Shown here: positions 7,498 through 35,367 of the stretch, piece after piece
Layout: the number at the start of each line of letters is the position of its first letter
Position numbering within the stretch: the stretch's first letter is position 1
IMG/VR virus record: IMGVR_UViG_3300014838_000020
Span: 1-64,000 of that record
Direction: 5' to 3' (one strand)
Source of the DNA: a virus
Length of the DNA: 64,000 bases
Made by a program: the position numbers and the translations under genes
The notes under the pieces: model-generated
Database searches by the model: none
Told to the model about the DNA's origin: nothing
Seen by the model: the letters and a program-made list of their open reading frames with translations, nothing else

Positions 7498-8949
7498 ATG
7501 AGCCCAATTCCAGGATACCAAAATCCGAATGTTTACGTAGAGCAGGCACCCTCACCTATCATAACGAATGCCGTTCTTAGTGCATCACCAAATATTCTAT
7601 TTTTGGCCTTTTCACCCAATTTACCGACTAGTAATCAAAACGATACCTTCCAATTTACTTCATCTTCTGGTATCCAGACCTTTACTCTAAGTCAGAGTGG
7701 AACAGTTTCTAACTTTGTGCTAACCAATAGTCTAACTGGAGCTCCACTAACTAGTGGAACTAACTACAGTGGGCCAACTACTACGAGTGGAATAACTACG
7801 TTTACCACAATTAGCGGTAGTTCTTTTGTACAGAATAGTACTTACTTGCAGGCTTCCTACACCTTCACTACTGTCGCTCCAGGTTCAGTGTACACATTTA
7901 CGGATTACAATAGTGCAGCCAATACTTTTGGTCAGCCATTCGTTTACAGTGGGTCTACACCAACTATTAACTCACCAGCTTCTTTGGCTGCTTTCCTTGC
8001 ATTCCAGAATGGTGCTCCTCAGGTAACTCTAATGAATATTGTTTCCCAGAGTGGAACAGCAGCTGACTTCCTAACGGCTATTCAATCTTTTACTGGTACA
8101 GATTACTTTGACCTGATCGTTCCACTTGTATTCGATACTGCTTATGATGCTTCATCTACTGGACCTCTATTCAAGGGATTATCACAATTCTTAACTGCTC
8201 AGGCCAATAATGGAATATTCCAAAGGTCATTTATTGGATTAGACAGTTCAGCTGCTGGCTCATCATTGCCAATAACTGTACCAATCAGTATTGCTAACGA
8301 CATGTTTAATCAGAGAGTTAGTGTTTGTAACCTACCGACTATTAACTATAATCCTGGATTTAATAGTTCAACTGGTACGACTACTGGAGTAGTTAGTCTT
8401 AATGGTTACTATGTAGCAGCTGCTTTAGCTGGTTTGTGGGCTTCACAAGCTCCTCAGACACCATTGACTCATCAAACATTACTTGGGTTCTCAAGTCTTT
8501 CTAACCAGTTGACTTCCTCACAGGAAACAACTCTACAGTCTTATGGAGTGTTGGTAGTTGCTCAAAAGCGTAATGGAACTATTTACGTTCGTCATGGTCT
8601 TACTACTAATACTAGTAACTGGCTAACTCAGGAAATTTCAATTAATGCAGTTGGTGACTATGTTGGCAAGAACTTTAAGGAAAACTTTACTAATAGTAAT
8701 CTAATTGGTCAGGCTCTAACTCCATCAGTTATGTCTGCAATTGGTAACTTAACAACCGGCGTTCTGAGTGATCTTAAGACCACTGGTGTCATTCAAGGTT
8801 ATACAGGTATCAACATTGTTCAAGACCCTAATAACCCAACTAGAGTTTTGGTGTCATTCCTGTACTCACCCACTATTCCATTGAATTACATCAATATCAC
8901 TATTGCGATTAACACTGCCAGTGGCGCATTCACGGTAACAGCGGCTTAA
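7498..8949 (+). CDS. Contractile tail sheath protein
   Basis: N-terminal YQNPNVYVE; AAALAG...PLTH; VRHGLTT; C-terminal SPTIPLNYINITI; strong AGGAG RBS. Confidence 0.9.
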   Translation: MSPIPGYQNPNVYVEQAPSPIITNAVLSASPNILFLAFSPNLPTSNQNDTFQFTSSSGIQTFTLSQSGTVSNFVLTNSLTGAPLTSGTNYSGPTTTSGITTFTTISGSSFVQNSTYLQASYTFTTVAPGSVYTFTDYNSAANTFGQPFVYSGSTPTINSPASLAAFLAFQNGAPQVTLMNIVSQSGTAADFLTAIQSFTGTDYFDLIVPLVFDTAYDASSTGPLFKGLSQFLTAQANNGIFQRSFIGLDSSAAGSSLPITVPISIANDMFNQRVSVCNLPTINYNPGFNSSTGTTTGVVSLNGYYVAAALAGLWASQAPQTPLTHQTLLGFSSLSNQLTSSQETTLQSYGVLVVAQKRNGTIYVRHGLTTNTSNWLTQEISINAVGDYVGKNFKENFTNSNLIGQALTPSVMSAIGNLTTGVLSDLKTTGVIQGYTGINIVQDPNNPTRVLVSFLYSPTIPLNYINITIAINTASGAFTVTAA

Positions 8950-10598: not shown

Positions 10599-10627
10599 TC
10601 GACAATTTAACCAATTTGTGATATAAT
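10599..10627 (+). promoter_or_regulatory. sigma70-type promoter for the tail chaperone gene
   Basis: TCGACA-17 nt-TATAAT. Confidence 0.6.
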
Positions 10628-19705: not shown

Positions 19706-22282
19706 ATGGCACAGGCAGTTACTATTCTCCAGAGGCTTCTTACAAGCCTCACTGCACAGGATCCTACCTGGGATGTTTCGGTTGGATCGCCTGTATATAA
19801 AATCTTTGAATCATTCGCCAATGAGTTGGCTACAGCAATTAATACAAATACTCTTACTTCATATAGTTTTGACGTAAATAGTAAATCTGGAATTGCTCTG
19901 GATTCCTTCGTTAATATATTTGGAATTAATCGTAGACTTGGTACTAGAGCAGTAGGTTCGGTATCATTCAGTATTAGCTCACCAGCTGCTCAGATTCTTA
20001 CAATTCCTATTGGTACTCAGATCTTTGTGCCTGGATCTCAGTCATTAACTGGAAATAACATCTTCTTTGCCACAGTAGCTACTGCATTTATCGGAATTGG
20101 TCAAACTGAAGTTCAAGTTCCAATCCAAGCTGTTTTACCAGGTAGCTTTAGCAATGTTCAATCACAAACTATTACTTCTGTAACAACTGCCATACTAGGG
20201 AGTCCATCGGTTACAAATTTCAGCCCCACTCAAGGTGGTGCAGATACTGAAACTGATGTACAGTTGCAGACCAGATTTATACAAACTGCTTTTGCTAACA
20301 TTTCTGGAATCGTCAACAAATATGTACAAATGGCTCTACAAGACCCTAATATTACACAGGTCAATGTCGTTGGTGCTCAACAAACTTATACCGAACAGGA
20401 TCAGGTTTGGACAACAATAATTGGTAATAGCACTTTCATTCCAGCATTAAATTTCCAAGCACAATTAATGGCAGTTAGTGGATCAAATAATGCAGTTCTA
20501 ACTAATGGTAGTTTCCCGTCTAATGTATTTGGTGCGACCCAAATAACTCCATCGCCAATTGGATGGTCTGGAACAATTGTTAACAATGGTTCTAATTATG
20601 TGTTAAGCACTACTGTTTCTGGTAATACAGTGTTTAGTGTAGACTATTTGTTTCTTAATCCTCCAACATTTAATGGATCGAGCAACGTATCTGCTGTTGC
20701 TGCCTGGGCAATTGATAGTCTAGCTACGTTAGGTGTTTCAACTACAGCTACTTACTCTGGAACTACCATTTCTGGTGGTGGTCACATCACCTTTAATCAG
20801 CCAACAGGTTTTAATCTAATTGTTTTTAGTGGTGCTGTTAGTGGATGGAACTCTATAACCTCTCAGATACCTGACTCAAAATATACGTATCCAGAAGGTG
20901 GGGAAAGTATAGGTCAGAATTTAGGCTCTATAAGTCAAATTCTACTAACTAATGGACAAGATTATAACTATCCTGCTTCTAGTGGAGTTCCTTTAATTGT
21001 CACTCTAAAACCGAATGTTTTAAATGCTCCTCTAACATATACTGGAGAACTTCTCCAGATGCAATCCGAGTATATACCTATTTCATCAAGAATAGTTAAT
21101 CCTACAATTAATTCAAACTTTGTTGAAGTATTCATTAATGGCAATAATGCAACATCCACTACTTCACAAGTATTAGTTAGTCCAAATGTAGTCTTTACTA
21201 GCGGTATAACTAATGGATTATATAATGCAAATAACTTTAGTTATGCTAATGGACTTAATTGTATATCTGGTTCTACGAATAGTATTGGAGATTACTATAT
21301 TGGATTTGCTAATAAACCAGCAATTAACTGGCCAGCTCAATTAATTTCTGGGAACCAACCTTCTTTTATAAGTTTTGTTAGCATTTCTGGGTTCGCTGGA
21401 GTGACTAATATACCAATTTGTACAGAATTTGTTAACCTAGATCCTCCAAATATAACAGGTATCTCGGGTGCAGTTGGAACAAATATGTTTACAACTAATT
21501 CCAATATTTCTGCGTTATACCTTGGTTTAGTGATATCTGGAACGGGTATAGCAACTACTACTACTTTAAGTGGAATCCCATTCAATACCTACATAACTAG
21601 TCTTGTACCTGGTCTTCCAAACACTATCTATTTGTCAGATTTATTAACATCCAACGTTACTTCTTGTACTGGTACTTTTGTAACAGCTGCATATCCAGTT
21701 TATGATGTTACTAACAATGCAGGCTCCGTATTAGATATGACCGGAATTGCAGTTGTTAGTCATGAACAAGTTGGATATGAATCACAGAGTTATTTCCCGT
21801 GGTCTATCAGTGGTATTAACACTGCTGTTGGAACGATTTTGTATAATTACAATTATGATGTTTCTCAAGTAAATGATATAATTCAGCAATCTAGAGTTGT
21901 TGGGACTAATGTTTTAGTTCGACAAGCTCAGTATTTGAATCTTATTATTAATCTTTCGGTCATATATGTACAAAATGCCAATGTACCTGTTGTGAATTCT
22001 GCTATACAAAATGCTTTAGTACAGTTCTTACAGTCAGTTTCTTATGATCAAGTCATTAGCTTTTCTAGTTTAGCATCAGTGGTTTACGGAGTTGGTGGTG
22101 TGGCTTCTGCTAGAGTTTCTACAATATCAGATAATCTCAATCAATATGGTATTATAAGTGTTCCATTGGATGGAGATTTAACTAATGCTGTACAATACAC
22201 ATCAGATATTTTATTGGCTAATAACCAATTGGCTCAATTATTTAGTGTGAATATAACTACTTTTGGCCTCAACAATTTCTAA
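19706..22282 (+). CDS. Baseplate J-like protein
   Basis: GIALD..FGINR..GTRAVGSV.F; IPIGTQ; GGADTETDVQLQTR; C-terminal V.GV.SA motifs. Confidence 0.88.
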   Translation: MAQAVTILQRLLTSLTAQDPTWDVSVGSPVYKIFESFANELATAINTNTLTSYSFDVNSKSGIALDSFVNIFGINRRLGTRAVGSVSFSISSPAAQILTIPIGTQIFVPGSQSLTGNNIFFATVATAFIGIGQTEVQVPIQAVLPGSFSNVQSQTITSVTTAILGSPSVTNFSPTQGGADTETDVQLQTRFIQTAFANISGIVNKYVQMALQDPNITQVNVVGAQQTYTEQDQVWTTIIGNSTFIPALNFQAQLMAVSGSNNAVLTNGSFPSNVFGATQITPSPIGWSGTIVNNGSNYVLSTTVSGNTVFSVDYLFLNPPTFNGSSNVSAVAAWAIDSLATLGVSTTATYSGTTISGGGHITFNQPTGFNLIVFSGAVSGWNSITSQIPDSKYTYPEGGESIGQNLGSISQILLTNGQDYNYPASSGVPLIVTLKPNVLNAPLTYTGELLQMQSEYIPISSRIVNPTINSNFVEVFINGNNATSTTSQVLVSPNVVFTSGITNGLYNANNFSYANGLNCISGSTNSIGDYYIGFANKPAINWPAQLISGNQPSFISFVSISGFAGVTNIPICTEFVNLDPPNITGISGAVGTNMFTTNSNISALYLGLVISGTGIATTTTLSGIPFNTYITSLVPGLPNTIYLSDLLTSNVTSCTGTFVTAAYPVYDVTNNAGSVLDMTGIAVVSHEQVGYESQSYFPWSISGINTAVGTILYNYNYDVSQVNDIIQQSRVVGTNVLVRQAQYLNLIINLSVIYVQNANVPVVNSAIQNALVQFLQSVSYDQVISFSSLASVVYGVGGVASARVSTISDNLNQYGIISVPLDGDLTNAVQYTSDILLANNQLAQLFSVNITTFGLNNF

Positions 22283-22299
22283 ATAAAAATTAAATAACT

Positions 22300-23295
22300 A
22301 TGTCAGTCGTCTATCCTCTAACTCTCCCCCAAACATTACCGTGGAAGGTTCGAAACTTTCCTGATGACGTATACAATTTTAATCCAACTGATAATTTAAC
22401 TCAATTAATGAGCATCGCTCTAGGTGCAGCAGGAACTGGGCAACTAGATCTAATCTACACAGCAGCCCGAATTAATCAAGAGAACCTAGAGTTCTCTGAC
22501 CTAGACAATATTTTGGGACTTCTTTTAAACACTCGAAGATTAGTAACAGAGATGTATAATACTGTTAATAATCCATTCACTGACCAGCTAAGTATTGACA
22601 ATTGGGAAGATGTCATATCAAAAGATTCAGCCTATAGAGAAAGATTAAATGGCGTTGGCAGTTCCTATCTACAAGGGGCTACTCCAACAGGTTTAAGAAA
22701 TATTGCCAATTCTACAAACTCCCTTGAAAATAAGATCATCGAAGTTTGGAATGTAACTACTTCTGGTTTAACAGTTTCTGGTACTAACTACAACACCAGA
22801 GGCTTTGGCGTTAACGAAACTCTTATTGTCCCGTTAGTACCTGATGATCTAACATTTGATAATGACCTAAAACGAGATACACTACAGAGTCTTTACAACT
22901 TAAAACCTGTTGGTAATATAGTTACAATTACCAGTGGTGTAAATCCATATAATGACTTAGATTACATAGTAACATCGGGGAATTCTGAATTTTTCTATCT
23001 AGATCGTCAAGTACTTGCTAATGGGGTTAACACACCATCTTCTGTCTTTAATGCAGGCAATACTGCTGTAAGTAGCAGATATTTTTTGAAAAATAATGTA
23101 AACGTCGAAGTACCACAATTTGCTCATATAGTGACGGAAGAATCAATAACTGATGTAACTCTAAACATTTCAACCGTTGCTGTTATTCCTTTAAGTTCAT
23201 TGTCAAGTACTGGAGAACTACCAGGGTATAGCACTACATTACCTATTGGTAATCCCAGTTTTTCTATAACAGCTACGGTATATGGCAACGCGTAG
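22300..23295 (+). CDS. Baseplate wedge protein (gpI-like)
   Basis: Follows the J-like gene; DSAYRERL...GATPTGLR...LKPVG motif. Confidence 0.65.
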   Translation: MSVVYPLTLPQTLPWKVRNFPDDVYNFNPTDNLTQLMSIALGAAGTGQLDLIYTAARINQENLEFSDLDNILGLLLNTRRLVTEMYNTVNNPFTDQLSIDNWEDVISKDSAYRERLNGVGSSYLQGATPTGLRNIANSTNSLENKIIEVWNVTTSGLTVSGTNYNTRGFGVNETLIVPLVPDDLTFDNDLKRDTLQSLYNLKPVGNIVTITSGVNPYNDLDYIVTSGNSEFFYLDRQVLANGVNTPSSVFNAGNTAVSSRYFLKNNVNVEVPQFAHIVTEESITDVTLNISTVAVIPLSSLSSTGELPGYSTTLPIGNPSFSITATVYGNA

Positions 23296-23884
23296 CATGA
23301 GATACGGCTCTAGAGTACCTAAAATCTATGGTCTATATGATCCTAGAAAGCCTGATGACATTAAATATGTTGGTGTTACAATACAAAATTTAACTGATCG
23401 GCTAAGTAACCATAGACGTAATATTTGGGAAACAAAAAACCCTACTAATAAAGAAAAATGGATTGATAGATTAAAAAGAGAAGGTGTGCAACCGGAAATT
23501 AAACTTCTCGAAGAGTGTGAAACAGTTGAGTTAATGTACGAGCAAGAAATTGTATGGATTCAAAATCTTCGTAAACAAGGTTATAAACTTGCTAATACGA
23601 GTAAGGGAGGAAGAGGGGGTTTTTCCTACCCTAAGAGTGATAAATGGAAACAGTTTATTAAAGAAGATAATATTAGACGTAATTTAGATCCAGAGTACCA
23701 TAAAAAATTATCACAAGCACAGGTAGAATCTTATAAAAATAATCCAGAGCAAAAAGAGAAACAAAGTAGTTCTCAAAAACTCCTGTGGCAAGATCCAGAA
23801 TGGAGGAGTAAAACGATTGCAACGATGAAGAAAAACCGTTCGATCAACCCCACTCTTCATCGTAATAAAAACGGAAACCAATAG
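23282..23884 (+). CDS. GIY-YIG homing endonuclease
   Basis: KIYGLYDP...KYVGVT..R..H...E..WI..L.N..GG catalytic signature, followed by a basic DNA-binding tail. Confidence 0.88.
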   Translation: MATRSMRYGSRVPKIYGLYDPRKPDDIKYVGVTIQNLTDRLSNHRRNIWETKNPTNKEKWIDRLKREGVQPEIKLLEECETVELMYEQEIVWIQNLRKQGYKLANTSKGGRGGFSYPKSDKWKQFIKEDNIRRNLDPEYHKKLSQAQVESYKNNPEQKEKQSSSQKLLWQDPEWRSKTIATMKKNRSINPTLHRNKNGNQ

Positions 23885-26037
23885 TGGCAATTACCCCTCC
23901 CCAACTCAACCCGCTTTTAACCTTTCCTGACAATTCACAGTTACCGGAAATGTCCGTAGATGGTATCATAATTGATCGTGTATATGGAGCAACTGGTGTA
24001 TTAGACACTATCCAGAGTAAAACAACATCACAGTATCAGGACCCAAATAGCAATCAGATTAATCCACCTGCTCAAATTTCATTACCTAATCAGGGCAACT
24101 CTACAGTTTGGTACAGTTCTTTAGTTGACGATGTTTATAATACTGGGTTTGCATTAGCCTTTCAATTTAGTAGAACTACGTATATAAATTATGTAACTTT
24201 TGATTTACTGAATGTGCCTTGTTCTTGGACACTATTACAAGTTAGTGGTACTTATAGTCCAATAATTGGCGGGAATGTGTTAGCTCAAGGTATAGTAAAT
24301 GGAACTAATAGTCAAGGCTGGATAAATTTTGAAGAGACATTACCAGAAACTTGCTATTTCGATAGCAGTATTAATTTGGTATTAGTTATAACTAAGTTAC
24401 CTACTGGTACTCAATATAATTTCGGTGTGCAAAATTTCTTAACTAAATTAGTAGTTCAGGAAATCTCTGATATCGAAATGAATATTGGTTCTTTTGCTTA
24501 TGACCAATATATTAGCTCTCTAGCCCCTTCTGCATGGTGGAAATTGTCTGATGCAGTTGAAAACTCTCCAACTGCTATTGACTCATCGGGTAATGGGTAT
24601 ATAGGCACCGTCATGAGTGGCGTAACATTCGGTAAGACTGGACCCACTGGTACAGGTGCTGACACAGCGGCGTTATTCAACGGCATTTCGGGTCACATCT
24701 CTACATCATTCCAACCTTCAGGCACTGCATTTAGTCTGACGGTCGCTCTTAACATGAAAAAACCAAGTGGTTCAGAGTTGCTGGTGTCATCATCAGATGA
24801 ACGCTATACTGGCATTGAGATTCTCATTGACGCAAATGGTAATTATCATGTGAAAGTTGGCAATGGAACAACAATGGTGAACTTTATGGGTGCTACGGTT
24901 GTTGCTGACTCAACATGGCACTTCATAACATTTACATACAATGGTTCTATCGTTCGTTCTTATGTTGACTATAATAGTACAGTGGATGGATCTGCAGTGT
25001 TAAGCGGTAGTATTCTGAGTAATCTTTTTAGTATTGTATTGGGCACATATGCACCAGCACCTGGAACTTTTAATTTTTCTGGTACAATGGCACAAGTTGC
25101 GATCTTTAACACTGTTCTTACTACTGCTCAACTCGCTGCATTGAAAAATGCAGTATCTGTAGTTGGACAATATACAATTCCTTCTATGACCACTCAAAAT
25201 AGTTTTGGGTTTATTGAAACCTTTACATCGGTAATATATAATTATGGTAATTTTCAAGTTCCAAATCAAGAAAGTATATACTGGAAGTGTAGTCCTCAAC
25301 CAGTAAAGGATGCAGTAGTTTGGTTTACATTAGATCTTGGACAAACTCAAGTAATCAATAGAATGTATGTCGACCCTTTATATACTGGCTGTTCATTTAA
25401 TTTATATTGGAGTATCGACAATATTAATTGGACTCCTGTTAACCAGGATCTAACATTGCACAAAGGTATGTATTGTTTGAACCCAATTTGCGCCAGGTAT
25501 CTTAAATTAGAATTCTCCCAATTAGTCCCCGAAGTGTATGATCTCCCATTTGATGCTGTTAATAGAGTCGTACAGGTATTCCCAGATTATGTTGATACAT
25601 ATTTCCTTGGATTAGAACAGGCTCTTCTAGATGCACCCGCACAAACTTATAATAACTTAGTTGGTAATAGCCCTAACATACTTTACAATACTTCTCCAAG
25701 CATCTCTAGTAACTATGGAGCCCTAGTTGGTCAATTAACTTCTGATCAATTTGGTGGTTCACCTACAAATCTTGGATTAGCTAATCTGGGGGATAATAGT
25801 TCAAGTTATAGTGTAGTAGATCCTACAGTTTCATATAAAAATCTGCAAGACGTTGCGAATGAAGGAAGTATTTTCTCTAATGTGGGTGATACCCCATTCA
25901 TGAATCGTAGATTCTATCAGTATGGACCTCATACATATAAAGAAGTCTTGATCAATCAAACTTGGCATGAAGCATATTTTGTTGGCATCAAATATCTAAG
26001 TTTTTATAACATAGAACAAATTGGATTCCCACAATAA
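23884..26037 (+). CDS. Baseplate/tail protein with inserted LamG (concanavalin-A-like) domain
   Basis: PSAWWKL..AIDSSGNG...WHFITFTYNG...FSGTMAQVAIFNTVLT at about 24500-25150; discoidin-like LDLG..INRMY..ARYLKL region after it. Confidence 0.75.
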   Translation: MAITPPQLNPLLTFPDNSQLPEMSVDGIIIDRVYGATGVLDTIQSKTTSQYQDPNSNQINPPAQISLPNQGNSTVWYSSLVDDVYNTGFALAFQFSRTTYINYVTFDLLNVPCSWTLLQVSGTYSPIIGGNVLAQGIVNGTNSQGWINFEETLPETCYFDSSINLVLVITKLPTGTQYNFGVQNFLTKLVVQEISDIEMNIGSFAYDQYISSLAPSAWWKLSDAVENSPTAIDSSGNGYIGTVMSGVTFGKTGPTGTGADTAALFNGISGHISTSFQPSGTAFSLTVALNMKKPSGSELLVSSSDERYTGIEILIDANGNYHVKVGNGTTMVNFMGATVVADSTWHFITFTYNGSIVRSYVDYNSTVDGSAVLSGSILSNLFSIVLGTYAPAPGTFNFSGTMAQVAIFNTVLTTAQLAALKNAVSVVGQYTIPSMTTQNSFGFIETFTSVIYNYGNFQVPNQESIYWKCSPQPVKDAVVWFTLDLGQTQVINRMYVDPLYTGCSFNLYWSIDNINWTPVNQDLTLHKGMYCLNPICARYLKLEFSQLVPEVYDLPFDAVNRVVQVFPDYVDTYFLGLEQALLDAPAQTYNNLVGNSPNILYNTSPSISSNYGALVGQLTSDQFGGSPTNLGLANLGDNSSSYSVVDPTVSYKNLQDVANEGSIFSNVGDTPFMNRRFYQYGPHTYKEVLINQTWHEAYFVGIKYLSFYNIEQIGFPQ

Positions 26038-27488
26038 TGGCAGTTTTTACTGACTACTTCTTCGCTGTTGGCCCAAATAATAACCAGGCAGTTTCTAATA
26101 CATTAATTAATCCAGCGTCAACGGCCACTTTGGTATCAGGATACGGTGGATATACAGGGAACGCTGGGGATATACTACAAACAAATCAATTGCGTACTAT
26201 ACAAAGTTTTCAAAGTTTTAATGTAGGTAGCATTGCTACTGATTGGCAGAGTTTTTTAAGTTCAACGGTCACTCTTTTGAGGAGCAACTCTCCTGCTCAA
26301 TTGGGACTTACTATTTCTGGTGTTTTCTATACTTCAAACCAGACTAACCCTAATTATGGTATCTATACATTTAGTGGATCGAGCGGGAATAGTTATGTTC
26401 AAACTACTTTAGGTGGTGGTAATAACTTGTTAACTTCTAGTGAGGCAAACTTCACTACGGGAGGATGGTCAGGCAGTAATGTAACTTCTGGCACTAGTGT
26501 TACAATATCTGGATTAACATCAGTCAATATTCCACTTCTTTCTGATGTATCTTATGGCGCATCATTCGGTGAGTTCCCATATGGTACATCAGCACTTGGT
26601 GGTTTGGCCATAGAAGGATTAAACATAAATCAGTATGACTATTTAGTAACTGCTTCTGGCACTGGGACAGTCACTATGACTATTAATTACTCTTCTACTA
26701 GTTATACACAGAAATTTACAATTTCTGGAATCGATAATCTTAATTTTTTAACAAATCAGCCAGATAACACTGATGTAATAAATATATCATTAACAACCAG
26801 TGGGCAAATTACATATTCACAAGCTGGTTTGTTTAATGGATATACTACTTCGTGGGTATCGTCTTTGCTAACGGATAGTATGAGAATTTCTACTGTGGCT
26901 AGGCTTTTTCTTCCTAATACCAGCACTGGCACATATACACTTTCTCTGTATAGTAATGCTGGTGTTTTATTAGCTGATAAGTTTTTCTCTGGGTTGCTAA
27001 CGCAAACATGGATCGACCTTACTGTTGATTATATATTACCTCCCCAAGTTACTAACCAATCGTTTTATGCTGTATTATCTCAAAGTTACTCTACGGAAGT
27101 ATACGAGCTCAGTATGTTTGGGATGTTCTATAATCCACTTTCTTATCAATTTAGTACTGATAACTCTACATGGTATCCGATTACCATCGGCATTAATGAT
27201 GCATTTACTGCAATTACTATTGAACAACCAACTCAAAGTTTTTACTTAAAGGTTACTTTCTTACAGGATTACACAACAATCAATGCAATACAAATTGTAC
27301 CTAAATTTACTCAAACTCCTTTTTATAATTCCACTAATATTAACTTTTTGAGTGACCCAAAAATTAATGAAATCGCTGATAGGATTCCGGTTCAACTACA
27401 ACCATTGTTCCAACCTATATCATTGGACTTTCCATTCATCTACTCACAACAAGAGTTAATGAATATAACATCACCGTTTTTGCTGTAG
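26037..27488 (+). CDS. Tail/baseplate structural protein
   Basis: T/S/G-rich beta protein; TAATG-coupled to the upstream gene. Confidence 0.55.
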   Translation: MAVFTDYFFAVGPNNNQAVSNTLINPASTATLVSGYGGYTGNAGDILQTNQLRTIQSFQSFNVGSIATDWQSFLSSTVTLLRSNSPAQLGLTISGVFYTSNQTNPNYGIYTFSGSSGNSYVQTTLGGGNNLLTSSEANFTTGGWSGSNVTSGTSVTISGLTSVNIPLLSDVSYGASFGEFPYGTSALGGLAIEGLNINQYDYLVTASGTGTVTMTINYSSTSYTQKFTISGIDNLNFLTNQPDNTDVINISLTTSGQITYSQAGLFNGYTTSWVSSLLTDSMRISTVARLFLPNTSTGTYTLSLYSNAGVLLADKFFSGLLTQTWIDLTVDYILPPQVTNQSFYAVLSQSYSTEVYELSMFGMFYNPLSYQFSTDNSTWYPITIGINDAFTAITIEQPTQSFYLKVTFLQDYTTINAIQIVPKFTQTPFYNSTNINFLSDPKINEIADRIPVQLQPLFQPISLDFPFIYSQQELMNITSPFLL

Positions 27489-27493
27489 TTAGT

Positions 27494-28312
27494 ATGATTA
27501 AACTCTGTGAATGTGGTCTTTGCAATCTAGAGGTTAAACCCAACAATAGGTTCATTAAAGGACATAATCGTAAAAAGTATTTAGTAAGTAAAAATGAATC
27601 CCTTAGTCAGCGTAGGGAAAAATTAAAGAATCTTGGATCTTTAGAAATAAAAGAAGGGATTAAACTTTGTGCTTGTGGCTGTAATGAAACAGTTAAACTA
27701 GGGAATAAATATATTAATCATCATTCTAATAGGGGAATAATACTATCTAAAAGAAGTAAGGTGATAACACCCAGAATTTGCGTTTGTGGTTGTAACGAAA
27801 CATTTATTTCTAAAAGAAGAGAGACTCAATATAAACGAGGGCATTCTAACAGAGGTTTAAAACACACTCCAGAACAAATTGAAAAAACCCGACAATCTAA
27901 TATAGGCCGTAAACATCCTCCACGCGCTGAAGAGTTTAAGGAAAGAATGTCAAAAACAACAAAACGAGCTTGGGCTGAAGACAGACTCAAAGTATCTGGT
28001 CTTAGATATTCTTCTTATGAAGTATCAGCTGCTCATTACCTTGAACCTCTTGGATTTATAGCTACTTATAAAGATCAAAGACGAGTTGTTTGTACAGATA
28101 GAACTAGAGTTCCTGATTTTATCAATTACGATACCATGCAAATAGTAGAATTATTTGGGGTTTGGTGGCATAGAGATCGTCCTTTGCCTAAAGGAAAATC
28201 TCATGAGACCCATGGATATATCATAAAGCGTTATAAAGAAGTGGGGTATGCTTGTCGAGTAATATGGATTGAAGAAGAATTCGATGATTTTATTAAAGAG
28301 CTAAATAAGTAA
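27494..28312 (+). CDS. Free-standing homing endonuclease (CxCGC repeats + NUMOD3 + Vsr/EDxHD-like), paralog of 4212..5114
   Basis: Three C-x-C-G-(L)C...GH repeats; HTPEQIEK; PDF..QIVELFGVWWHRDRPLPKGK. Confidence 0.8.
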   Translation: MIKLCECGLCNLEVKPNNRFIKGHNRKKYLVSKNESLSQRREKLKNLGSLEIKEGIKLCACGCNETVKLGNKYINHHSNRGIILSKRSKVITPRICVCGCNETFISKRRETQYKRGHSNRGLKHTPEQIEKTRQSNIGRKHPPRAEEFKERMSKTTKRAWAEDRLKVSGLRYSSYEVSAAHYLEPLGFIATYKDQRRVVCTDRTRVPDFINYDTMQIVELFGVWWHRDRPLPKGKSHETHGYIIKRYKEVGYACRVIWIEEEFDDFIKELNK

Positions 28313-28322
28313 ATATATCATC

Positions 28323-28970
28323 TTAGAGATCTAATACAAATTGCGAATTTCCATAATTTGCCTGGTATTTAGTAATATCTAAGTTTCTAAAGTAGCGTTC
28401 ATTTCTGTTGACGCCATCTTCCTTGTAAATGCTGGGAGGTCTTTCATTTAAATTTACTTCAAAGAGTTCTGGATGGTAAAGAGCATATCCTTTTTGTAGG
28501 GTATTTTCTGCTTTTGTTGCTATTCTCTTAGCACTGTCTAAGTCTTCATAGTCTGTATTTTTCAACTCTAAAATTTCTTCTTTCTTTGACAGCAAGTAAC
28601 TATATTTGTAGGCACAAATATTCATTGTTCCTGGATCAGAATTAAGCATACACACCACATCTGGTTCTCCTGCTGGAATATCATTTACCAGTTTACCAAA
28701 GTTAGGACCTGCTTTACATGTATCATGTAGTAAGAACCAGTAGTCAGATTCTATTTCATTTTCCACGATATCTATTAAAGCAGTATAGTCAAAAGAGTTA
28801 TGTGCTACTCGTGTATGAGTAATTCCTTTGCGAATTTCCCACCATCTTTCGGCGTACCCTCCCTCAAAGATAAAGATATCTTTAGTTTCTACACTTTGAA
28901 GTAGAGAGGGAATAATAACAGGTAAAGTATAAGAACTGAACTTACGTACAGAACTTATTGCTATCTTCAT
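28323..28970 (-). CDS. Putative glycosyltransferase (GT-A-like)
   Basis: IAISS...PSLL...IFIFEGG...YWFLLHDT (DxD-like); part of the sugar operon. Confidence 0.55.
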   Translation of the reverse strand: MKIAISSVRKFSSYTLPVIIPSLLQSVETKDIFIFEGGYAERWWEIRKGITHTRVAHNSFDYTALIDIVENEIESDYWFLLHDTCKAGPNFGKLVNDIPAGEPDVVCMLNSDPGTMNICAYKYSYLLSKKEEILELKNTDYEDLDSAKRIATKAENTLQKGYALYHPELFEVNLNERPPSIYKEDGVNRNERYFRNLDITKYQANYGNSQFVLDL

Positions 28971-29821
28971 TTTACTAAACTTGTTAGAATTTCTTTATAA
29001 GAGTCTAAAATATCTGTTGTTTGTAAATAGTCTCTCTGTGTATGGAAAGCATAATGAACGATTAACACATCCCCATAAATAATATTGGGACGATTTAAAC
29101 GTCGTGGAATATCGGAAGAAACTGCAATCTCTTCATTCCAATCTAGTTCAACACCTGCAAGATCTCGTCCAAACCAACAAAGAGAATTGATGGATATTCT
29201 TTCATACTCAGCAAGTACCCATTCAGGGAAACGATAATCGTCTAATGTATTATTAGATAGTTTATCTAGGAAGTTCTTGTGCTTTTTAACAGCCACTTCT
29301 CCATTTTCAACTCCATTAATATTTACACAGTCATATGCAATATTTTCTGCAATATTAAGTGCGCGAATTCTTTGGTGGATATGATCACAGATACTATTAT
29401 TAATAATATTTGGTAGAACAAATAAATATTCAAGATTTTTAATTCGAAAATTCACCATTTTTTCGATAAAGCCTTCTTCGATATAGATGACATCATCATC
29501 TAGTCGAACATAAATTGTACTATGGTCTTTGAATCCTTCCCAAAACTTATTCAGTAACAGAGGATTATGTGACTTGCCTTCGAATTCACGTTCCGGAAGA
29601 GGGAGATGAATTAATCGTTCATCTAGAGTAATTTTATCATACTTTTCCGCTTGTTCATAAAGCCATTTAAGATTTTCTTCATCAGTAGTATTGATACAAA
29701 ATCTAATTTCATCAACATAATCATATTCCCTTAAGATTTGAGGGAGCAGTAATTCCATATACTCTTTTCGACCAGCACCAATAGTGACTACAATCTTATA
29801 TTCCTGTTGCACAGTTATCAT
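28967..29821 (-). CDS. Putative glycosyltransferase (GT-A fold)
   Basis: AGRKEYMELL...IYVRLDDDVIYI (DxD)...PNIINN...HYAF. Confidence 0.7.
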   Translation of the reverse strand: MITVQQEYKIVVTIGAGRKEYMELLLPQILREYDYVDEIRFCINTTDEENLKWLYEQAEKYDKITLDERLIHLPLPEREFEGKSHNPLLLNKFWEGFKDHSTIYVRLDDDVIYIEEGFIEKMVNFRIKNLEYLFVLPNIINNSICDHIHQRIRALNIAENIAYDCVNINGVENGEVAVKKHKNFLDKLSNNTLDDYRFPEWVLAEYERISINSLCWFGRDLAGVELDWNEEIAVSSDIPRRLNRPNIIYGDVLIVHYAFHTQRDYLQTTDILDSYKEILTSLVK

Positions 29822-30780
29822 GAAAACAAATCAACCCAAATTAATGCAGCCTCTTTGAACTTCTTAGTGTAACCTTCCGGTTCGCCTTCGATGACATCAG
29901 GTAACTTAGTAATCAATTCTCTATATGTTTCTACTGGAGTTATTTCAGTTAGTTGTATCTTCTGGACTTCTTTCCAGAAATTTTCATTCATTTGAAGTCC
30001 TGGAGCCTGCTTCTTTAGATTGGTATACACATTAGATTGCTTGCGATGTTCAACTGAAGGATAACCTGAACGAACTGCATAGCCTAGATGATCACAAACT
30101 TTTTTCGAAAGTACTCCAGCCCAAATGTCATCATATTGATCAAATCCCCAGTCAGGTCCAAAGATCCCAAAGTACATAATTGGAGTAAGTTCTGCCAACC
30201 ATGCCAAGTTCATTCCACACATTGGGTAAAAGTTATCTTTGGGTATAGTTTGGGTTTCGTAGAATTGAGTTGGTGAAAACCTCAGACCAGGATTATGTAG
30301 ACTAGTAGCGGCATCTAAATCGGGGACGTTACTCCACAGTCCATGACTAATTCCTACTGGAGATTGTTCACGAATGTCATACGGAAATCCGCGAGTGAAC
30401 TCAAATTGATTATTCGAAGGGTACCATCCAAGAGTAGTCTTACTCTCTAGATTTTCAATGTGACCTCGTAAAAAATTGGAACCATCAGGATAGCAATCAT
30501 TATCAAGAGTGTAGATGTGTGTAGCTTGTATTTGCCATGCTTTATAATATCCATAAGACCTACAGGCAGAAGACTGAGTAGGAATAATCCATTCATTCTT
30601 GCCTAAGTCCTTCTTGATATCCTTGTGATCATAAATGTATCCATCGAATCCCTTAGGCATTGTCGGTTTATCACCTATATCTTGAATGATAATTAATTCA
30701 GTAGCCTTTAATTCATCCCACTCTTCTAAAAACTTAAGATGGGGTAAATGATTTGGTATTACAACGATTGGATTAACCAC
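29818..30780 (-). CDS. Reversibly glycosylated polypeptide / UDP-arabinopyranose mutase homolog (GT75)
   Basis: Colinear plant RGP motifs: IVVIP, IIIQD, SACRSYGY, TLDNDC, RGFPYDIRE, SHGLWSNVPDLDA, PMCGMNLA, MYFG, YDDIWAG, KKVCDHLG, SNVYTNLKK. Confidence 0.9.
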   Translation of the reverse strand: MVNPIVVIPNHLPHLKFLEEWDELKATELIIIQDIGDKPTMPKGFDGYIYDHKDIKKDLGKNEWIIPTQSSACRSYGYYKAWQIQATHIYTLDNDCYPDGSNFLRGHIENLESKTTLGWYPSNNQFEFTRGFPYDIREQSPVGISHGLWSNVPDLDAATSLHNPGLRFSPTQFYETQTIPKDNFYPMCGMNLAWLAELTPIMYFGIFGPDWGFDQYDDIWAGVLSKKVCDHLGYAVRSGYPSVEHRKQSNVYTNLKKQAPGLQMNENFWKEVQKIQLTEITPVETYRELITKLPDVIEGEPEGYTKKFKEAALIWVDLFS

Positions 30781-31616
30781 TCTTTTGTCCTCTCTAGTCC
30801 TTCTTGCCAGTTTATCTTAGGTTGCCAACCATTCACTTTACCTACTGCAATATTATCGTTAGCAAAATGTTGAACATCACCAGGAAGCTTTTTACCTTCA
30901 ATGATTCTATCATAATCTAGTGTTTCTAGTAATGTATTAAGAGATAAGATATTCTCTGGGCCACCACCAAAGTCATAATCACTATTCTTATATAACTCGA
31001 AATTTTGAACTTGATCCATTAATAAATCAATATGGTCATCTATGTAAAGAACATCTCTAGTCTGTGTTCCATCTCCAAAAAGAGTAATAGTCTTATTTTG
31101 CACAGAAGCTTTAATAAACCAAGTGAACCATCCCCCATCTTCTGAACCTTCTTGGTTGTGTCCATAAACACTAGAGGGGCGATTAATGATATACTCTAGT
31201 CCGTAAAGTTCGTGATACATCTTAATGTATTGCTCGCCAACTAGTTTAGACAATCCATAAGGAGGAATGATTCCATCCTCTCCAGGATAAACTTTCATGG
31301 AAGAATTAAAAATTACAGGGATATTGTATTGCCTCGCAACTTCACAAACATTAAAGGTTCCTATTGCATTATCAATAAAATCTAATTGGGGATCTCGAAG
31401 TGAAATTTGAGTGGAACAATTAGCTCCGAGATGAACAATCATACAAGGGTGATGTTTTTCTACCGCACTCCTCAGTAAGTAATAATCAGAAGTGGAAGCA
31501 CCATGCTTCTTATCCATGCCTACAACATTAGGTAGTTTGTTAAGAAGATGGCCACCAATAAATCCTGCACTGCCTGTAACCAGGATTTTCTTGTTATATA
31601 ATTTGTCCAAAGTCAT
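30759..31616 (-). CDS. NAD-dependent nucleotide-sugar epimerase (extended SDR, CDP-tyvelose 2-epimerase-like)
   Basis: TGSAGFIG, YGLSK, S.RDP..DF..N..GT.NV, SS.KVY, RPSSVYG.NQ...D.GW..WF, GDGTQTRDVL. Confidence 0.88.
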   Translation of the reverse strand: MTLDKLYNKKILVTGSAGFIGGHLLNKLPNVVGMDKKHGASTSDYYLLRSAVEKHHPCMIVHLGANCSTQISLRDPQLDFIDNAIGTFNVCEVARQYNIPVIFNSSMKVYPGEDGIIPPYGLSKLVGEQYIKMYHELYGLEYIINRPSSVYGHNQEGSEDGGWFTWFIKASVQNKTITLFGDGTQTRDVLYIDDHIDLLMDQVQNFELYKNSDYDFGGGPENILSLNTLLETLDYDRIIEGKKLPGDVQHFANDNIAVGKVNGWQPKINWQEGLERTKEWLIQSL

Positions 31617-31624
31617 AATACTAT

Positions 31625-31653
31625 ATTATACTACATGTAATATACATTGTCAA
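31625..31653 (-). promoter_or_regulatory. Perfect consensus sigma70 promoter driving the sugar cluster (near-leaderless mRNA)
   Basis: TTGACA-17 nt-TATAAT on the - strand; ATG 31616 is only 8 nt past the -10 box; no SD. Confidence 0.8.
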
Positions 31654-31734: not shown

Positions 31735-32478
31735 CTAGTCGCAGCAACTGTAATTTAAGGTCAGTTTGCCATCAACTTCTGTATATTTATTAAAAATTTT
31801 TAATTGTCTTTCTAATTCCTTAATTTCTGATTCTCTTACTATAATTATTTGGTATTTCTTATATTGATTTAAATATTGAACTTTATAAATATTTCCATTA
31901 CATTTACTATCATCATCACCTTTTACTTCTAAAAATACATTAAATTCTGGTAAATAAAAATCAGGTGTATATGTAGTATTTAATTCAGATATTTTAATGC
32001 TATTAGGTTCATATTGGTATAGAATCTGATAGCAGTCACAAAGTTGTGCACATCTAGCTTCAATTTTGCTTCTTGTTTGAATATTTTTATAAACGGTAGG
32101 TATTCCATAGAGTCTACTAACCTTATCCACTGGTCTATTACTAAAAACTCCGTTAGCCCATTCTTCTTTCTTTTTAAGACTTTGTCGTGAGATATATTCA
32201 GGGGTTCTAGATTTTCCAATATTAGCATTCAGTAATATTTTTTTATGCCAATTCGGTAGGATATCTCCTCTATGGTTATGACCATGTATATATTTTGTGG
32301 TAGTATATTGTGAAAATACACTTTCACCGCAACCACAAGCACACAGACCACGATATGGTCGTGTTATAATGCGCCCAGATCCACCTGGACATTGGTTATG
32401 GCCCATTATGTAAACAGTTCTTAAATTTTTAACCGTTAGTTCTTGGCCACATCCACATTTGCATAATCTTGTATTCAT
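31735..32478 (-). CDS. Free-standing endonuclease (CxCGCG repeats + PD-(D/E)xK domain)
   Basis: Two CxCGCG..GHN repeats; RSKIE...YEP...YTPDFYLPEFNVFLEVKG. Confidence 0.8.
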   Translation of the reverse strand: MNTRLCKCGCGQELTVKNLRTVYIMGHNQCPGGSGRIITRPYRGLCACGCGESVFSQYTTTKYIHGHNHRGDILPNWHKKILLNANIGKSRTPEYISRQSLKKKEEWANGVFSNRPVDKVSRLYGIPTVYKNIQTRSKIEARCAQLCDCYQILYQYEPNSIKISELNTTYTPDFYLPEFNVFLEVKGDDDSKCNGNIYKVQYLNQYKKYQIIIVRESEIKELERQLKIFNKYTEVDGKLTLNYSCCD

Positions 32479-32618
32479 TACATATCACAACAGCTATCAC
32501 GGTACCCGCAGGTAGGACATTTGTAATGAGCGTGCTCTTGTAGCATCTTTCTGTCGCAGTAAGGACATACTAAATTTGGGGCTAAAGGGTTATGAGTCTT
32601 TTTAGATTCCTCGTCCAC
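32478..32618 (-). CDS. Small CPxCG-type zinc-finger microprotein (46 aa), not in the ORF track
   Basis: GTG start; reads MDEESKKTHNPLAPNLVCPYCDRKMLQEHAHYKCPTCGYRDSCCDM; TAATG overlap with the endonuclease gene. Confidence 0.7.
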   Translation of the reverse strand: MDEESKKTHNPLAPNLVCPYCDRKMLQEHAHYKCPTCGYRDSCCDM

Positions 32619-35367
32619 GTCTGCCTCTAGCTGGATCGTGACCTTGATTATTGTAACTTCTCCAAGTGCTAGAGAATGACTTTAGTTTCTCCCTACCTGA
32701 CATTTGGCCAACACCCGCTAGTTCACTCGGAGTGTGACTATGGTATCCACCCATAGCTGCTACTCCAAGAGTGGTCTTTCCTAGTCTGTCTCGTAGTTCT
32801 AGCTTATGGAAATTATTCTCTAGAAGATTATCGACACAGTGCATTATGCAGTCAGCAAGATCTTCTGTACGGACTGGACCGAAACTCATCTTCTGAACTT
32901 TTCCATTCTTAAGTTGTAAAAATTTTAGTTCTTGCTCTAGAAGGCATGTTTGTTCATCCCCAAATTGATCTTTAAAAGAATGCACCCAATTCATACCAAT
33001 CGCAGATTTAAACCGCTCACATCTCTGCATATTACTTTGTAGCGAAGCCTTCTCTTCCAGAATCATAGCCCTGTGTGCTGGACGCATTGCCCTAATTCGT
33101 TTCTTTAGACTATCGACCGTAACGAAACTACCGTATTGGTCAAAGGTAAATTTACGTATTGACCTAAATCTATCGAGAACATCAATCAGATCATCTTCAA
33201 TCATGGCATAGTCGATTTGGTGTTCTGGAAAATCTTCGGGTTTATAACAATTAATATGGTCAATGATAACATGTGTCCAGGTTTCATTATTCTCTGGATC
33301 ATAAATTTCTTCAGCATGAGCTACCATTACAGCAAAGTTATTGTTGTTCTTGCTGGGGTCAGCATGGCCATAATATATATAACCAAGTTTGCCTTGGTCC
33401 TGTGGAGTTAGAACACGCTCTATACCAGTGCTATCTTTAAATGAACTAAATATTCTTTCAACAATTCTTGGGTTCAAGAATGCATCAGTTACTTTAGCCC
33501 ATTGACTTAAGTTCTCAACCCTGAATGTTTCTGGATCTCGCTGTTCCAGTGCTTTCATTTTAGCATCATATAACTGCGGAACCTGTCTTCTAGTGAAAGG
33601 CATTCCTTCACATGCCTCTACATTATCCCAGTCTTCATAAGGGTCCCAACTAGCTAGTTGAATTGTTAACATCGTGGGAAATTCTGGATTACCTGCTTTA
33701 TCAATTTTAATACTATTTTTGTATAGTTCGTGAGCTTTGCCTACTTCGGTGTTATGACTGAACATACCATCGGCGAGTAATGTTTTCGTAGATGTACCAA
33801 GTGCTACAACATCACGATTCCCGGAATCCACAATTGATTCAACAGTAACATACTTAGAAGTTTTATCATAAATTCTTGTACCGTATAATCGGCTAGTAAA
33901 TTTAGCTAATAAACGTCGTGGGCGAATTGATCCAAGTAATTTCATTTTTTCTGATGGACCACCATTAATGGTAATATCAATGCAGTCTCTACCTTTTTCT
34001 TTAATATGAGTACAAAGATCATATCCACGCTCAAGTAGTATTTTAATTAGATTATCTAGTACTGGACCGGGGTTCTGGGCAATACCCAGTTGTCCTTGCT
34101 TAGAATAGGAACCTTCGCCATCATACATACCTGATAAATAGCCTGCATCATATGATTTATCGGTTTCCCAGGTGTCAATGTAACGAATCCTATCACCTTG
34201 CTTGAGGTTTTTGGTCTTAACCCATTTTAGTTCAGGGGAACCAGAGGTTCTTGTTAACCAAAGATGATCCCCAGTGCAAACTACCTCTGGACCATTTGTT
34301 TTTAACTTAAGCGTTGGTGCATTGATGATTGATGTTTCTGTAACGACTGCTTGACGCCAACTTCTGCCGTTGCCCTTACCACCTGGAGCATACTCATCGA
34401 ATCCTACTAATTTATCTCCAACTTTAAGAGACCCTACTGGTGCCCATGTGAGATCTTCTAAAAGAACTGGTGTTTCTGGCACAAGGCAATATGGTGATGT
34501 AGGAATAAAAATTAAGGCATCTTCACCAAACTGCATTAGTGCTGGGTTGATAGCAGCATATACAGCATGTGATGTTCTTGGTCCATCAGTTCCATCAACC
34601 ATGTGGGCAAACTCATCGTATACAACACTGAATACAGTCTTACCACGAGAGGCAGGAGCATTGGAACTAGCTACGTTTCCTCTAATAGAAGCAATTAGTC
34701 TTTGATTTTCTATACCTCTAGCATTTAGAGAAGCAATTTGACGTTTATCGGCTGGTGTTGTTAAAGCAAAAGAATAATCTCTAAGGTCAGCAATGTATGG
34801 CGCAAAGCATTTAGAGTTACTTATGAGGTTAATAAGGTCAGCAAACTGTAGCTCTTTAGCCTGTTTTTCTGCGGTTGCAATACAGGTTATTACGATACTT
34901 TTACCTCTAGCGACACCATAATATTCCTGTGGATCATCAAGAAGAATTAGTTTCCACAATTGATAAGCTAGAAGAATTGCCCCTAGGTGGTTCTTTCCAC
35001 CTCGTCGTCCAATAATTGCAATGATTTCTCCAAAATGGTCATAACCATTGGCTTTTAGCCACTCAACTCTCTTCCAAATATCTGGGTTAATCCCTTTAAC
35101 TATTTCATCAGAGGGATTGAACATTTCAGCCCATTCATTGATGACCCTGAGATCATACTCAGTCATGTTCTCTGTTTCAAGACACATCAATCTTAGTAAA
35201 GTTTTTTGTCTAGGGTATAACCTATCAGCTCCCAAGAAAGAAGGATGTTCAGCAAATTCTACAATAGAGGGTAAACGAACGTCCTCAGAGAGAGCGCCCT
35301 TCATCATCTCTAAAGGGTTTGTAATATTAGCTAGAGATTTTTTGTTTCTCTGATCAAATGATGCCAT
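32602..35367 (-). CDS. terL: Terminase large subunit, intein-containing
   Basis: LYPRQ, Walker A GRRGGKN, Walker B VVYDEFAH, coupling motif PTSP, nuclease HADPS...FDQY...EDLAD. Confidence 0.9.
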   Translation of the reverse strand: MASFDQRNKKSLANITNPLEMMKGALSEDVRLPSIVEFAEHPSFLGADRLYPRQKTLLRLMCLETENMTEYDLRVINEWAEMFNPSDEIVKGINPDIWKRVEWLKANGYDHFGEIIAIIGRRGGKNHLGAILLAYQLWKLILLDDPQEYYGVARGKSIVITCIATAEKQAKELQFADLINLISNSKCFAPYIADLRDYSFALTTPADKRQIASLNARGIENQRLIASIRGNVASSNAPASRGKTVFSVVYDEFAHMVDGTDGPRTSHAVYAAINPALMQFGEDALIFIPTSPYCLVPETPVLLEDLTWAPVGSLKVGDKLVGFDEYAPGGKGNGRSWRQAVVTETSIINAPTLKLKTNGPEVVCTGDHLWLTRTSGSPELKWVKTKNLKQGDRIRYIDTWETDKSYDAGYLSGMYDGEGSYSKQGQLGIAQNPGPVLDNLIKILLERGYDLCTHIKEKGRDCIDITINGGPSEKMKLLGSIRPRRLLAKFTSRLYGTRIYDKTSKYVTVESIVDSGNRDVVALGTSTKTLLADGMFSHNTEVGKAHELYKNSIKIDKAGNPEFPTMLTIQLASWDPYEDWDNVEACEGMPFTRRQVPQLYDAKMKALEQRDPETFRVENLSQWAKVTDAFLNPRIVERIFSSFKDSTGIERVLTPQDQGKLGYIYYGHADPSKNNNNFAVMVAHAEEIYDPENNETWTHVIIDHINCYKPEDFPEHQIDYAMIEDDLIDVLDRFRSIRKFTFDQYGSFVTVDSLKKRIRAMRPAHRAMILEEKASLQSNMQRCERFKSAIGMNWVHSFKDQFGDEQTCLLEQELKFLQLKNGKVQKMSFGPVRTEDLADCIMHCVDNLLENNFHKLELRDRLGKTTLGVAAMGGYHSHTPSELAGVGQMSGREKLKSFSSTWRSYNNQGHDPARGRRGRGI
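33751..34488 (-). mobile_element. Intein (246 aa) with LAGLIDADG-type motif in TerL
   Basis: Begins CLVPETPVL (Cys1), block B CTGDHLW, YLSGMYDGEGS, ends SHN followed by Thr+1. Confidence 0.92.

Follow-up and report, generated by a model that had tools for sequence, protein, structure and literature searches.

A stretch of 64,000 nucleotides from an uncultured peat-soil phage (positions 1-64,000 of the IMG/VR record IMGVR_UViG_3300014838_000020, hereafter the window) carries a four-gene cassette built around a homologue of the reversibly glycosylated polypeptides (RGPs) of family GT75. We have little doubt that this cassette is a real glycosylation module. Our overall reading, to which we give a probability of about 0.5, is that it is a modular operon in which a short-chain dehydrogenase/reductase (SDR) and the GT75 protein would make a nucleoside-diphosphate (NDP) furanose from a host NDP-sugar, and glycosyltransferases of the GT-A fold would transfer it, probably to virion proteins. 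Sequence comparison also points to what appears to be new here, a large GT75 clade on phage contigs with a coherent remodelling of three active-site residues.

The cassette was first described in a reading of the sequence alone (the sequence-only reading), which placed four overlapping genes behind a perfect promoter of their own, between the large terminase gene (terL) and the tail module; this arrangement was borne out. The open reading frames (ORFs) are co-oriented on the minus strand, at 28323-31616, in the order SDR-RGP-ORF3-ORF4. L-numbers (L002-L052) are labels of the related loci that we used for comparison.

31625..31653, minus strand: predicted sigma-70-type promoter, TTGACA-17-TATAAT, 12/12 (sequence match; kept in L034 and L033)
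30759..31616, minus strand: SDR epimerase, a shortened extended SDR, 285 amino acids (PF01370, phrog_540 and PDB matches)
29818..30780, minus strand: RGP/GT75 homologue, putative mutase, 320 amino acids, GTG start (PF03214 and PDB matches, tree)
28967..29821, minus strand: ORF3, predicted soluble GT-A glycosyltransferase, 284 amino acids (structure model, phrog_4447, alignment)
28323..28970, minus strand: ORF4, predicted small soluble GT-A-fold protein, 215 amino acids (structure model, alignment)

The SDR and RGP genes overlap by 22 nt, and the RGP/ORF3 and ORF3/ORF4 junctions are each a 4-nt ATGA, which argues that the genes are translationally coupled; a Shine-Dalgarno-like GAGAGGA stretch lies upstream of the GTG start of RGP. 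The promoter is the only 12/12 TTGACA-17-TATAAT in the window. Its -35 element, spacing and -10 element are kept in L034 (12/12) and L033 (11/12) while the flanks diverge, and this phylogenetic footprint argues that the predicted promoter is real. Since only 8 nt separate the end of the -10 element from the SDR ATG (~15 nt in L034), the transcript would have little or no leader, with its 5' end predicted ~1-3 nt before the ATG at 31616. Downstream of ORF4 no intrinsic terminator was detected, and inspection of the translations revealed no evident membrane segments in the cassette proteins. Promoter-like sites with at most one mismatch and a 17-nt spacer number six in the window, ~5x the shuffle frequency, where 1.16 were expected and none of 100 shuffles reached six; this excess suggests that several units are transcribed by the host's sigma-70-type polymerase in unmodified form. 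The other such sites are at 10599, 25214, 41648, 48108 and 57816.

Gene 2 had been taken for an RGP homologue from its motifs, and all of these (RGFPYDIRE, SHGLW, PMCGMNLA, YDDIWAG and DND) are present in its translation. To judge from its sequence family and core catalytic residues, it is a genuine GT75/RGP member: a family-model search, confirmed in a search of the whole record, matched it to PF03214 (E 3e-50; 171.8 bits, the curated threshold being 23.8) over nearly its full length (residues 6-316 of 320 on model positions 8-334 of 342), and it matches the solved structures of OsUAM2 (8cid, 3e-20) and MtdL (7xpr, 1.4e-12). We mapped its active site through a phmmer alignment to MtdL, using the MtdL structures and mutants of PMC9937993. 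Both Mn ligands are kept, D95 (MtdL D111) and H245 (H287), as is R130, the equivalent of the nucleophilic, self-glycosylated R159 of MtdL (R158 in OsUAM1), together with D154 (D195), the base D218 (D260), R74 (R90) and D93 (D109). All seven residues, and the PMCGMN motif, are invariant in 35 members of its clade that are 55-88% identical.

The DND in place of DDD is indeed there, as the sequence-only reading had said; rather than a lone oddity, it turned out to be one of three coupled, clade-wide changes. The DDD becomes D(N/T)D, the Arg at the position of MtdL R257 becomes Gln, and a new Arg follows the metal His; in the window's RGP these positions read D93-N94-D95, Q215 and H245-R246-K247. 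In a FastTree phylogeny of 170 sequences, all phage-assigned loci fell into one clade of 25 tips (support 0.999), and all 25 tips have Q215, H-R-(K/R) after the metal His and Asn or Thr as the middle DXD residue; at one tip (L012) Glu also replaces the first Asp. Loci were assigned to phages by their presence in a viral collection, by portal, protease and capsid genes, or, for ~40-kb contigs labelled as metagenome-assembled genomes, by a major head gene (L015). Chromosomal homologues, with DDD, Arg and H-x-R, lie outside this clade. The nearest outgroups in the tree are bacterial surface-polysaccharide enzymes, and the label 'plant-type' that had been given to the protein is thus misleading.

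Since the remodelled pattern is conserved, we take it to be selected. In MtdL, R257 contacts the beta-phosphate and the ring oxygen of the substrate; of the DDD only the third Asp binds Mn, and the middle one contacts the ribose 2'-OH (PMC9937993). From the alignment, the phosphate-binding Arg would have moved to the loop covering the diphosphate, perhaps in connection with another nucleotide handle. Such a handle would be, for example, that of deoxythymidine-diphosphate (dTDP)- or cytidine-diphosphate (CDP)-6-deoxyhexoses, matching the RmlB-, RmlD- and TyvE-like SDRs with which the clade is paired. A more far-reaching version, in which the moved Arg (R215->Q, 246->R) and the neutralised DDD Asp adapt the mutase to another nucleotide and a rare furanose is widely placed on capsids and tails through interchangeable transferases, is tentative and rather doubtful as a whole.

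The SDR matches PF01370 (1.7e-35) and the PHROG family phrog_540, 'nucleotide-sugar epimerase' (8.6e-52). Its motifs had been thought closest to CDP-tyvelose 2-epimerase, and its PDB matches agree with this: two of the top three are CDP-tyvelose 2-epimerases, 9rl0 (2.4e-38) and 1orr (8.6e-28), which stand alongside a Thermotoga GalE (5.4e-29). It has the GSAGFIGG form of the GxxGxxG NAD site, S104/S105 aligned on the SST of TyvE, and the YxxxK motif as Y120-G-L-S-K124. On this sequence basis it is classed as an extended-SDR NDP-sugar epimerase of the CDP-tyvelose-2-epimerase-like kind.

ORF3 had been described as a DDD-motif GT-A protein and ORF4 as GT-A-like, and both descriptions hold in the structure models. 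Neither protein matched a Pfam or NCBIfam family; ORF3 has a weak PHROG match to the glycosyltransferase family phrog_4447 (5.9e-07), and ORF4 matched no PHROG. With ~50 metagenomic homologues for each, we obtained alignments in which ORF3 has an invariant R106-x-D108-D109-D110 and a C-terminal H256, and ORF4, which lacks a canonical DXD, has an invariant H82-D83-T84-C85 in that place. The AlphaFold models (mean predicted confidence, pLDDT, 95.6 for ORF3 and 91.0 for ORF4) were compared with solved structures by VIA-align. For ORF3 the matches included SpsA (Z 14.4, root-mean-square deviation (rmsd) 3.6, 196 aligned residues), 9u7j (Z 14.2) and ColGalT1 (Z 13.7); 154 chains reached Z>=8, and those listed were mostly GT-A glycosyltransferases and related nucleotidyltransferases. 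ORF4 matched TarS (Z 11.2, rmsd 3.2, 162 aligned) and CHSY3 (Z 11.2, rmsd 3.7, 172 aligned), and its best fold matches include the wall-teichoic-acid glycosyltransferases TarS, TarP and RmlT. The models thus predict with high confidence that both proteins fold as GT-A glycosyltransferases. No CAZy or Pfam family assignment was obtained for ORF3, and clusters in the ESM Atlas were only virus-dominated ones named 'glycosyltransferase' or 'hypothetical', which we treat as leads only.

In metagenomes of prokaryotes and viruses the RGP family is represented by 1338 clusters (50% identity, E <= 1e-3). The clade of the window's RGP contains at least 120 protein clusters at 90% identity, each at least 54% identical to the query and mostly from soil and peat. 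An SDR lies directly upstream of RGP in 13/13 viral-collection loci and in 21/21 metagenome loci with enough upstream flank, the two sets sharing some contigs. These partner SDRs are of three kinds: TyvE-like, RmlB-like and short RmlD-like. The slot downstream of RGP varies, and holds ORF3, ORF4 (with or without ORF3), a DUF3431-like protein, a GT2, a GT1-like protein or a methyltransferase, which fits one donor pathway served by different transferases. As for the co-occurrence of the four genes in related phages, which the sequence-only reading had put forward as a check, the SDR-RGP pair was found wherever the upstream flank of a related locus sufficed, whereas the ORF3/ORF4 slot was variable. 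In L033, from the same phage lineage, ORF3 is cleanly missing. The same reading had called the pathway self-contained, which proved wrong: in addition to the loss of ORF3 in L033, the cassette has no nucleotidyltransferase, and further GT17 and GT4 genes lie elsewhere in the genome.

The commonest downstream gene encodes the DUF3431-like protein, present in 12 of 13 loci from the viral collection and the genome contigs whose downstream sequence was long enough to tell, and we regard it as a candidate furanosyltransferase. It is ~185 amino acids long, with a weak DUF3431 match and the conserved motifs PNxGREP, FxQGxPFxH and AERLW, and is found in L002, L004-L011, L013, L015 and L016, directly after RGP or after the methyltransferase. 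The genome record of the phage studied here has no such gene. That ORF4 might be a diverged copy of this usual partner was ruled out by hhalign, which detected no relation between ORF4 and the DUF3431-like family, nor between ORF3 and ORF4. PDB sequence profile searches with ORF3, ORF4 and the DUF3431-like family returned chance matches only.

The full four-gene order recurs in L034, of the same lineage and again between terL and tail genes, and also in L003 and L036-38, whose 13-kb surroundings share only an intein with this genome. Since the order recurs amid unrelated flanks, the cassette seems to move, or persist, as a module. In other phages, of at least two unrelated lineages, the gene immediately before the cassette is that of the major capsid protein; these are HK97-type high-GC phages (L004/5/7/8/9/13) and phrog_1357-type phages (L012, L015, L052). 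Bacterial RGP homologues (36-42% identity) are encoded among Bac_transf, WecG, Wzy_C, GT1, GT2 and DegT genes, in surface-polysaccharide loci. Among GenBank phages, blastn with the cassette gave no match, and tblastn with RGP gave a single distant copy (36% identity) in the huge uncultured phage LR756511.1. In that 595-kb genome the RGP (PF03214, 1.7e-42) belongs to locus L031 (200987-211910), where its neighbours are two sulfotransferase genes, a methyltransferase gene and one for a discoidin-domain protein, with no SDR; viruses may here have put GT75 to another use, sulfated glycans being one possibility.

In the pathway that we propose, the TyvE-like SDR would epimerise a host-supplied NDP-sugar, and the phage-clade GT75 would contract its pyranose ring to yield an NDP-furanose, with Mn2+ held by D95 and H245, R130 as the nucleophile and D218 as the base. 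The two soluble GT-A enzymes, ORF3 and ORF4, occupying the variable 'transferase slot', would then pass the sugar or sugars to an acceptor in the cytoplasm; structural proteins of the virion, modified before assembly or in its course, are the most probable one. The conserved consensus sigma-70 promoter would drive the operon, whose genes would be translationally coupled. That the RGP acts as a mutase seems probable from its sequence; for virion proteins as the acceptor we see roughly even chances. Several transferases in one genome, GT17 and GT4 included, suit an oligosaccharide. Ser-Gly dipeptides occur at 1.62x the compositional expectation (104 vs 64.3) in the structural proteins (12-27488, plus strand) and at 0.78x (25 vs 32.1) in the non-structural proteins (32602-62553, minus strand). 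This excess may reflect a glycosylation sequon or be a mere property of beta-rich virion proteins; it concerns this phage only and is a lead.

Several observations weigh against this reading, and the first of them concern the mutase itself. The sequence-only reading had proposed a flavin-independent mutase, and the protein does belong to a Mn-dependent, flavin-independent mutase family, but the DDD and the R257-equivalent Arg are missing. Q215 is invariant in the clade, where 131/137 other representatives have Arg, and the middle Asp of the DDD is Asn or Thr, where 121/137 others combine DDD with the Arg. In MtdL, R257K abolishes both substrate binding and activity, and inactive plant class-2 RGPs, like the inactive AtRGP5, lack the equivalent Arg; moreover, GT75 proteins have two activities, and with some sugars glycosyl transfer alone is elicited (PMC9937993). 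The clade protein could on these grounds be an arginine self-glycosylating protein or an ordinary glycosyltransferase, with the SDR-made sugar used as a pyranose. We consider this unlikely, as the Mn ligands, the nucleophilic Arg, both catalytic Asp residues and the PMCGMN motif are all invariant, and the loss of the Arg is coupled to the gain of R246 beside the metal His, on the diphosphate-binding loop of MtdL, which looks compensatory. The inactive plant class-2 RGPs have in addition lost the metal His, which is kept here, and the strict pairing with an NDP-sugar SDR, together with variable separate transferases, fits an enzyme that makes a donor. Mutase activity in the clade is accordingly judged likely and not assured, R257 being essential in MtdL. 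The SDR too departs from its models: it is ~55 residues shorter than TyvE and falls below every NCBIfam equivalog cut-off, the best being the RmlB model (85.8 vs 365 bits).

The remaining objections concern the acceptor. The capsid gene does not adjoin the cassette in this window, the record is ~48% complete, so that DNA-modification genes could lie elsewhere, and two complete relatives are temperate and carry an integrase, which makes conversion of the host surface possible. The furanose might serve hypermodification of the phage's own DNA. Arabinofuranosyl or galactofuranosyl groups on 5-hydroxy- or 5-hydroxymethyl-cytosine are documented in RB69, DLP3 and the Rhizobium phage RL38J1, and a phage Glf-type NDP-sugar mutase has been linked to DNA glycosylation (PMC13326640; PMC6024577); the phage studied here, a large myovirus, encodes replication genes of its own, and the record covers about half of its genome. 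The known routes to glycosylated phage DNA, however, start from a ThyA-family (thymidylate synthase) hydroxymethylase or hydroxylase, which makes the hydroxylated pyrimidine (PMC13326640). ThyA (PF00303) and ThyX (PF02511) are absent from the 75-kb record, itself ~48% complete, and PF00303 is absent also from three terminal-repeat-complete relatives that carry the SDR-RGP core. Elsewhere the cassette lies within the head-gene block, not among nucleotide-metabolism genes. We favour virion proteins over DNA because of the synteny with capsid genes and because no ThyA-family gene was found, and regard DNA as a very unlikely acceptor. That the products modify a host envelope glycan (lipopolysaccharide, teichoic acid, capsule or S-layer) in infection or lysogeny, so as to exclude superinfecting phages or mask the receptor, is similarly improbable. 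It would be in keeping with the surface-polysaccharide loci of the cellular homologues, the teichoic-acid enzymes among the fold matches of ORF4, the integrase of the two relatives and the operon's own host-type consensus promoter. Yet the cassette encodes no flippase, Gtr-type protein, polyprenyl-phosphate transferase or membrane segments, the 75-kb record contains no integrase, and a conversion moron would not typically lie within blocks of structural genes, as the cassette does in several lineages.

Modification of virion proteins by a furanose made from an NDP-sugar, the reading that we prefer, has partial parallels in known systems. The bacterial GT75 enzymes MtdL and Hyg20, GDP-L-galactose and GDP-L-fucose pyranose-furanose mutases, belong to the same Pfam/CAZy family; the shared Mn ligands, nucleophilic Arg, catalytic Asp pair and R90 equivalent lead us to expect the same flavin-independent chemistry. 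MtdL is alignable with the phage RGP over 65-298 only (E 1.4e-12), and differs from it by D87->Ser, D110->Asn, S228/Q229->Gly/Met, R257->Gln and H292->Ser; its context, like that of Hyg20, is an antibiotic cluster and not a phage operon. The plant UAM/RGP proteins (OsUAM1, AtRGP1-3, OsUAM2 8cid) resemble the phage protein in the full-length RGP model match and in the motifs RG(F/Y)P...RE, GLW and YDD-W-G, and the PMCGMNLA that had been listed as a plant motif is present as well. According to PMC9937993, active plant enzymes have Ser at the position of MtdL D87, as does the phage RGP; they have DDD and the R257-equivalent Arg, to which D(N/T)D and Gln correspond in the phage clade. The nearest relatives of the phage clade are prokaryotic, not plant.

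Comparable pathway logic is found with flavoenzymes of a fold unrelated to GT75. The Glf-type UDP-galactopyranose mutase of Pootjesviridae phages (PMC13326640) also converts an NDP-pyranose to an NDP-furanose and is linked to epimerases or dehydratases and glycosyltransferases, but it sits with ThyA-like and kinase DNA-modification genes that are absent here. The FADH2-dependent arabinofuranose (Araf) and fucofuranose (Fucf) mutases of the Campylobacter jejuni capsule (PMC10615251, PMC12369002) likewise act with epimerases or dehydratases and glycosyltransferases. By analogy, the cassette may work in the manner of the donor pathways, each an SDR plus a mutase, that polysaccharide and antibiotic clusters encode. 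On the acceptor side, O-glycosylation of mycobacteriophage virions by phage glycosyltransferases is established (Freeman et al. 2023, as cited in PMC12582341 and PMC11256854). The likeness lies in phage-encoded soluble glycosyltransferases tied to structural genes, and the terminase of the present phage has its best similarity (38%) to cluster C mycobacteriophages; the present case differs in being a peat phage of 36% GC with a putative glycan. We know of no nucleotide-sugar mutase or epimerase described in the mycobacteriophage systems. In the literature that we searched we found neither a description of GT75 in any phage nor a paper that connected MtdL, A201A and an epimerase.

The full record is 75,389 bp long (CheckV completeness ~48%), and near-identical DNA is present in many peat and permafrost metagenomes. 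The phage, a myovirus, encodes its tail sheath (7498-8949), tape measure, baseplate and minor tail proteins on the plus strand, as far as 27488; tail proteins occupy 19706-27488, and a capsid candidate lies at 2248-3336. The large terminase is encoded on the minus strand and is followed by replication genes. The terL gene (32602-35367, minus strand, 921 amino acids) carries an intein (Hint-like, residues ~273-539), and an intein 34-36% identical to it interrupts a metallophosphoesterase gene in the unrelated contigs L002 and L003 (L003 622-2250). The GC content of the cassette (32-40%) is the same as that of its flanks, and gives no compositional sign of foreign acquisition. Two paralogous homing-endonuclease-like genes, at 27494-28312 (plus strand) and 31735-32478 (minus strand), bracket the cassette between the tail genes and terL. 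They have repeated CxCGC...H(N/S) zinc-ribbon modules in common (29% identity, E 2e-10), and the second has an additional endonuclease-like C-terminal domain (PHROG and weak Pfam matches). As the close relative L034 has the order terL-SDR-RGP-ORF3-ORF4-tail without either of them, they are recent, lineage-specific insertions outside the system. Another homing-endonuclease-like gene lies at 23282-23884 (plus strand), within the tail/baseplate module (phrog_314, 6.3e-11), and the genome is unusually rich in selfish elements. The second glycosyltransferase locus of the genome, beyond the window (L014 2380-5376, genome 66380-69376), comprises a GT17 (PF04724, 2e-18), a NUMOD3 homing endonuclease and a 470-amino-acid GT4/GT1 protein, near AAA ATPases and a DUF2201 metallopeptidase-like gene. 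In four RNA libraries of a peat metatranscriptome, each of the four cassette genes, and terL as well, is partly covered by short contigs of at least 99% identity. These libraries may contain DNA, and the contigs reveal neither strand nor transcript ends, so they are compatible with expression in situ and do not prove it. The tail-fibre gene (26334-27669) had no cover in those libraries, which proves nothing.

To our knowledge, the characterised GT75 mutases comprise only two bacterial enzymes, MtdL and Hyg20, and the plant UAMs. The phage clade is a natural experiment on the roles of R257 and of the DDD in the unsettled GT75 mechanism, and its enzymes would be useful for making NDP-furanoses. 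The pairing of SDR and mutase, with a swappable transferase slot beside capsid genes, predicts furanose glycans on the virions of abundant uncultured soil and peat phages. If this is true, virion glycosylation would extend beyond actinobacteriophages and chloroviruses; on the more far-reaching version above, virion furanosylation would be a widespread, undescribed trait of environmental phages. Since furanoses are, as far as we know, absent from mammals, such glycans would also bear on the immunogenicity of phages.

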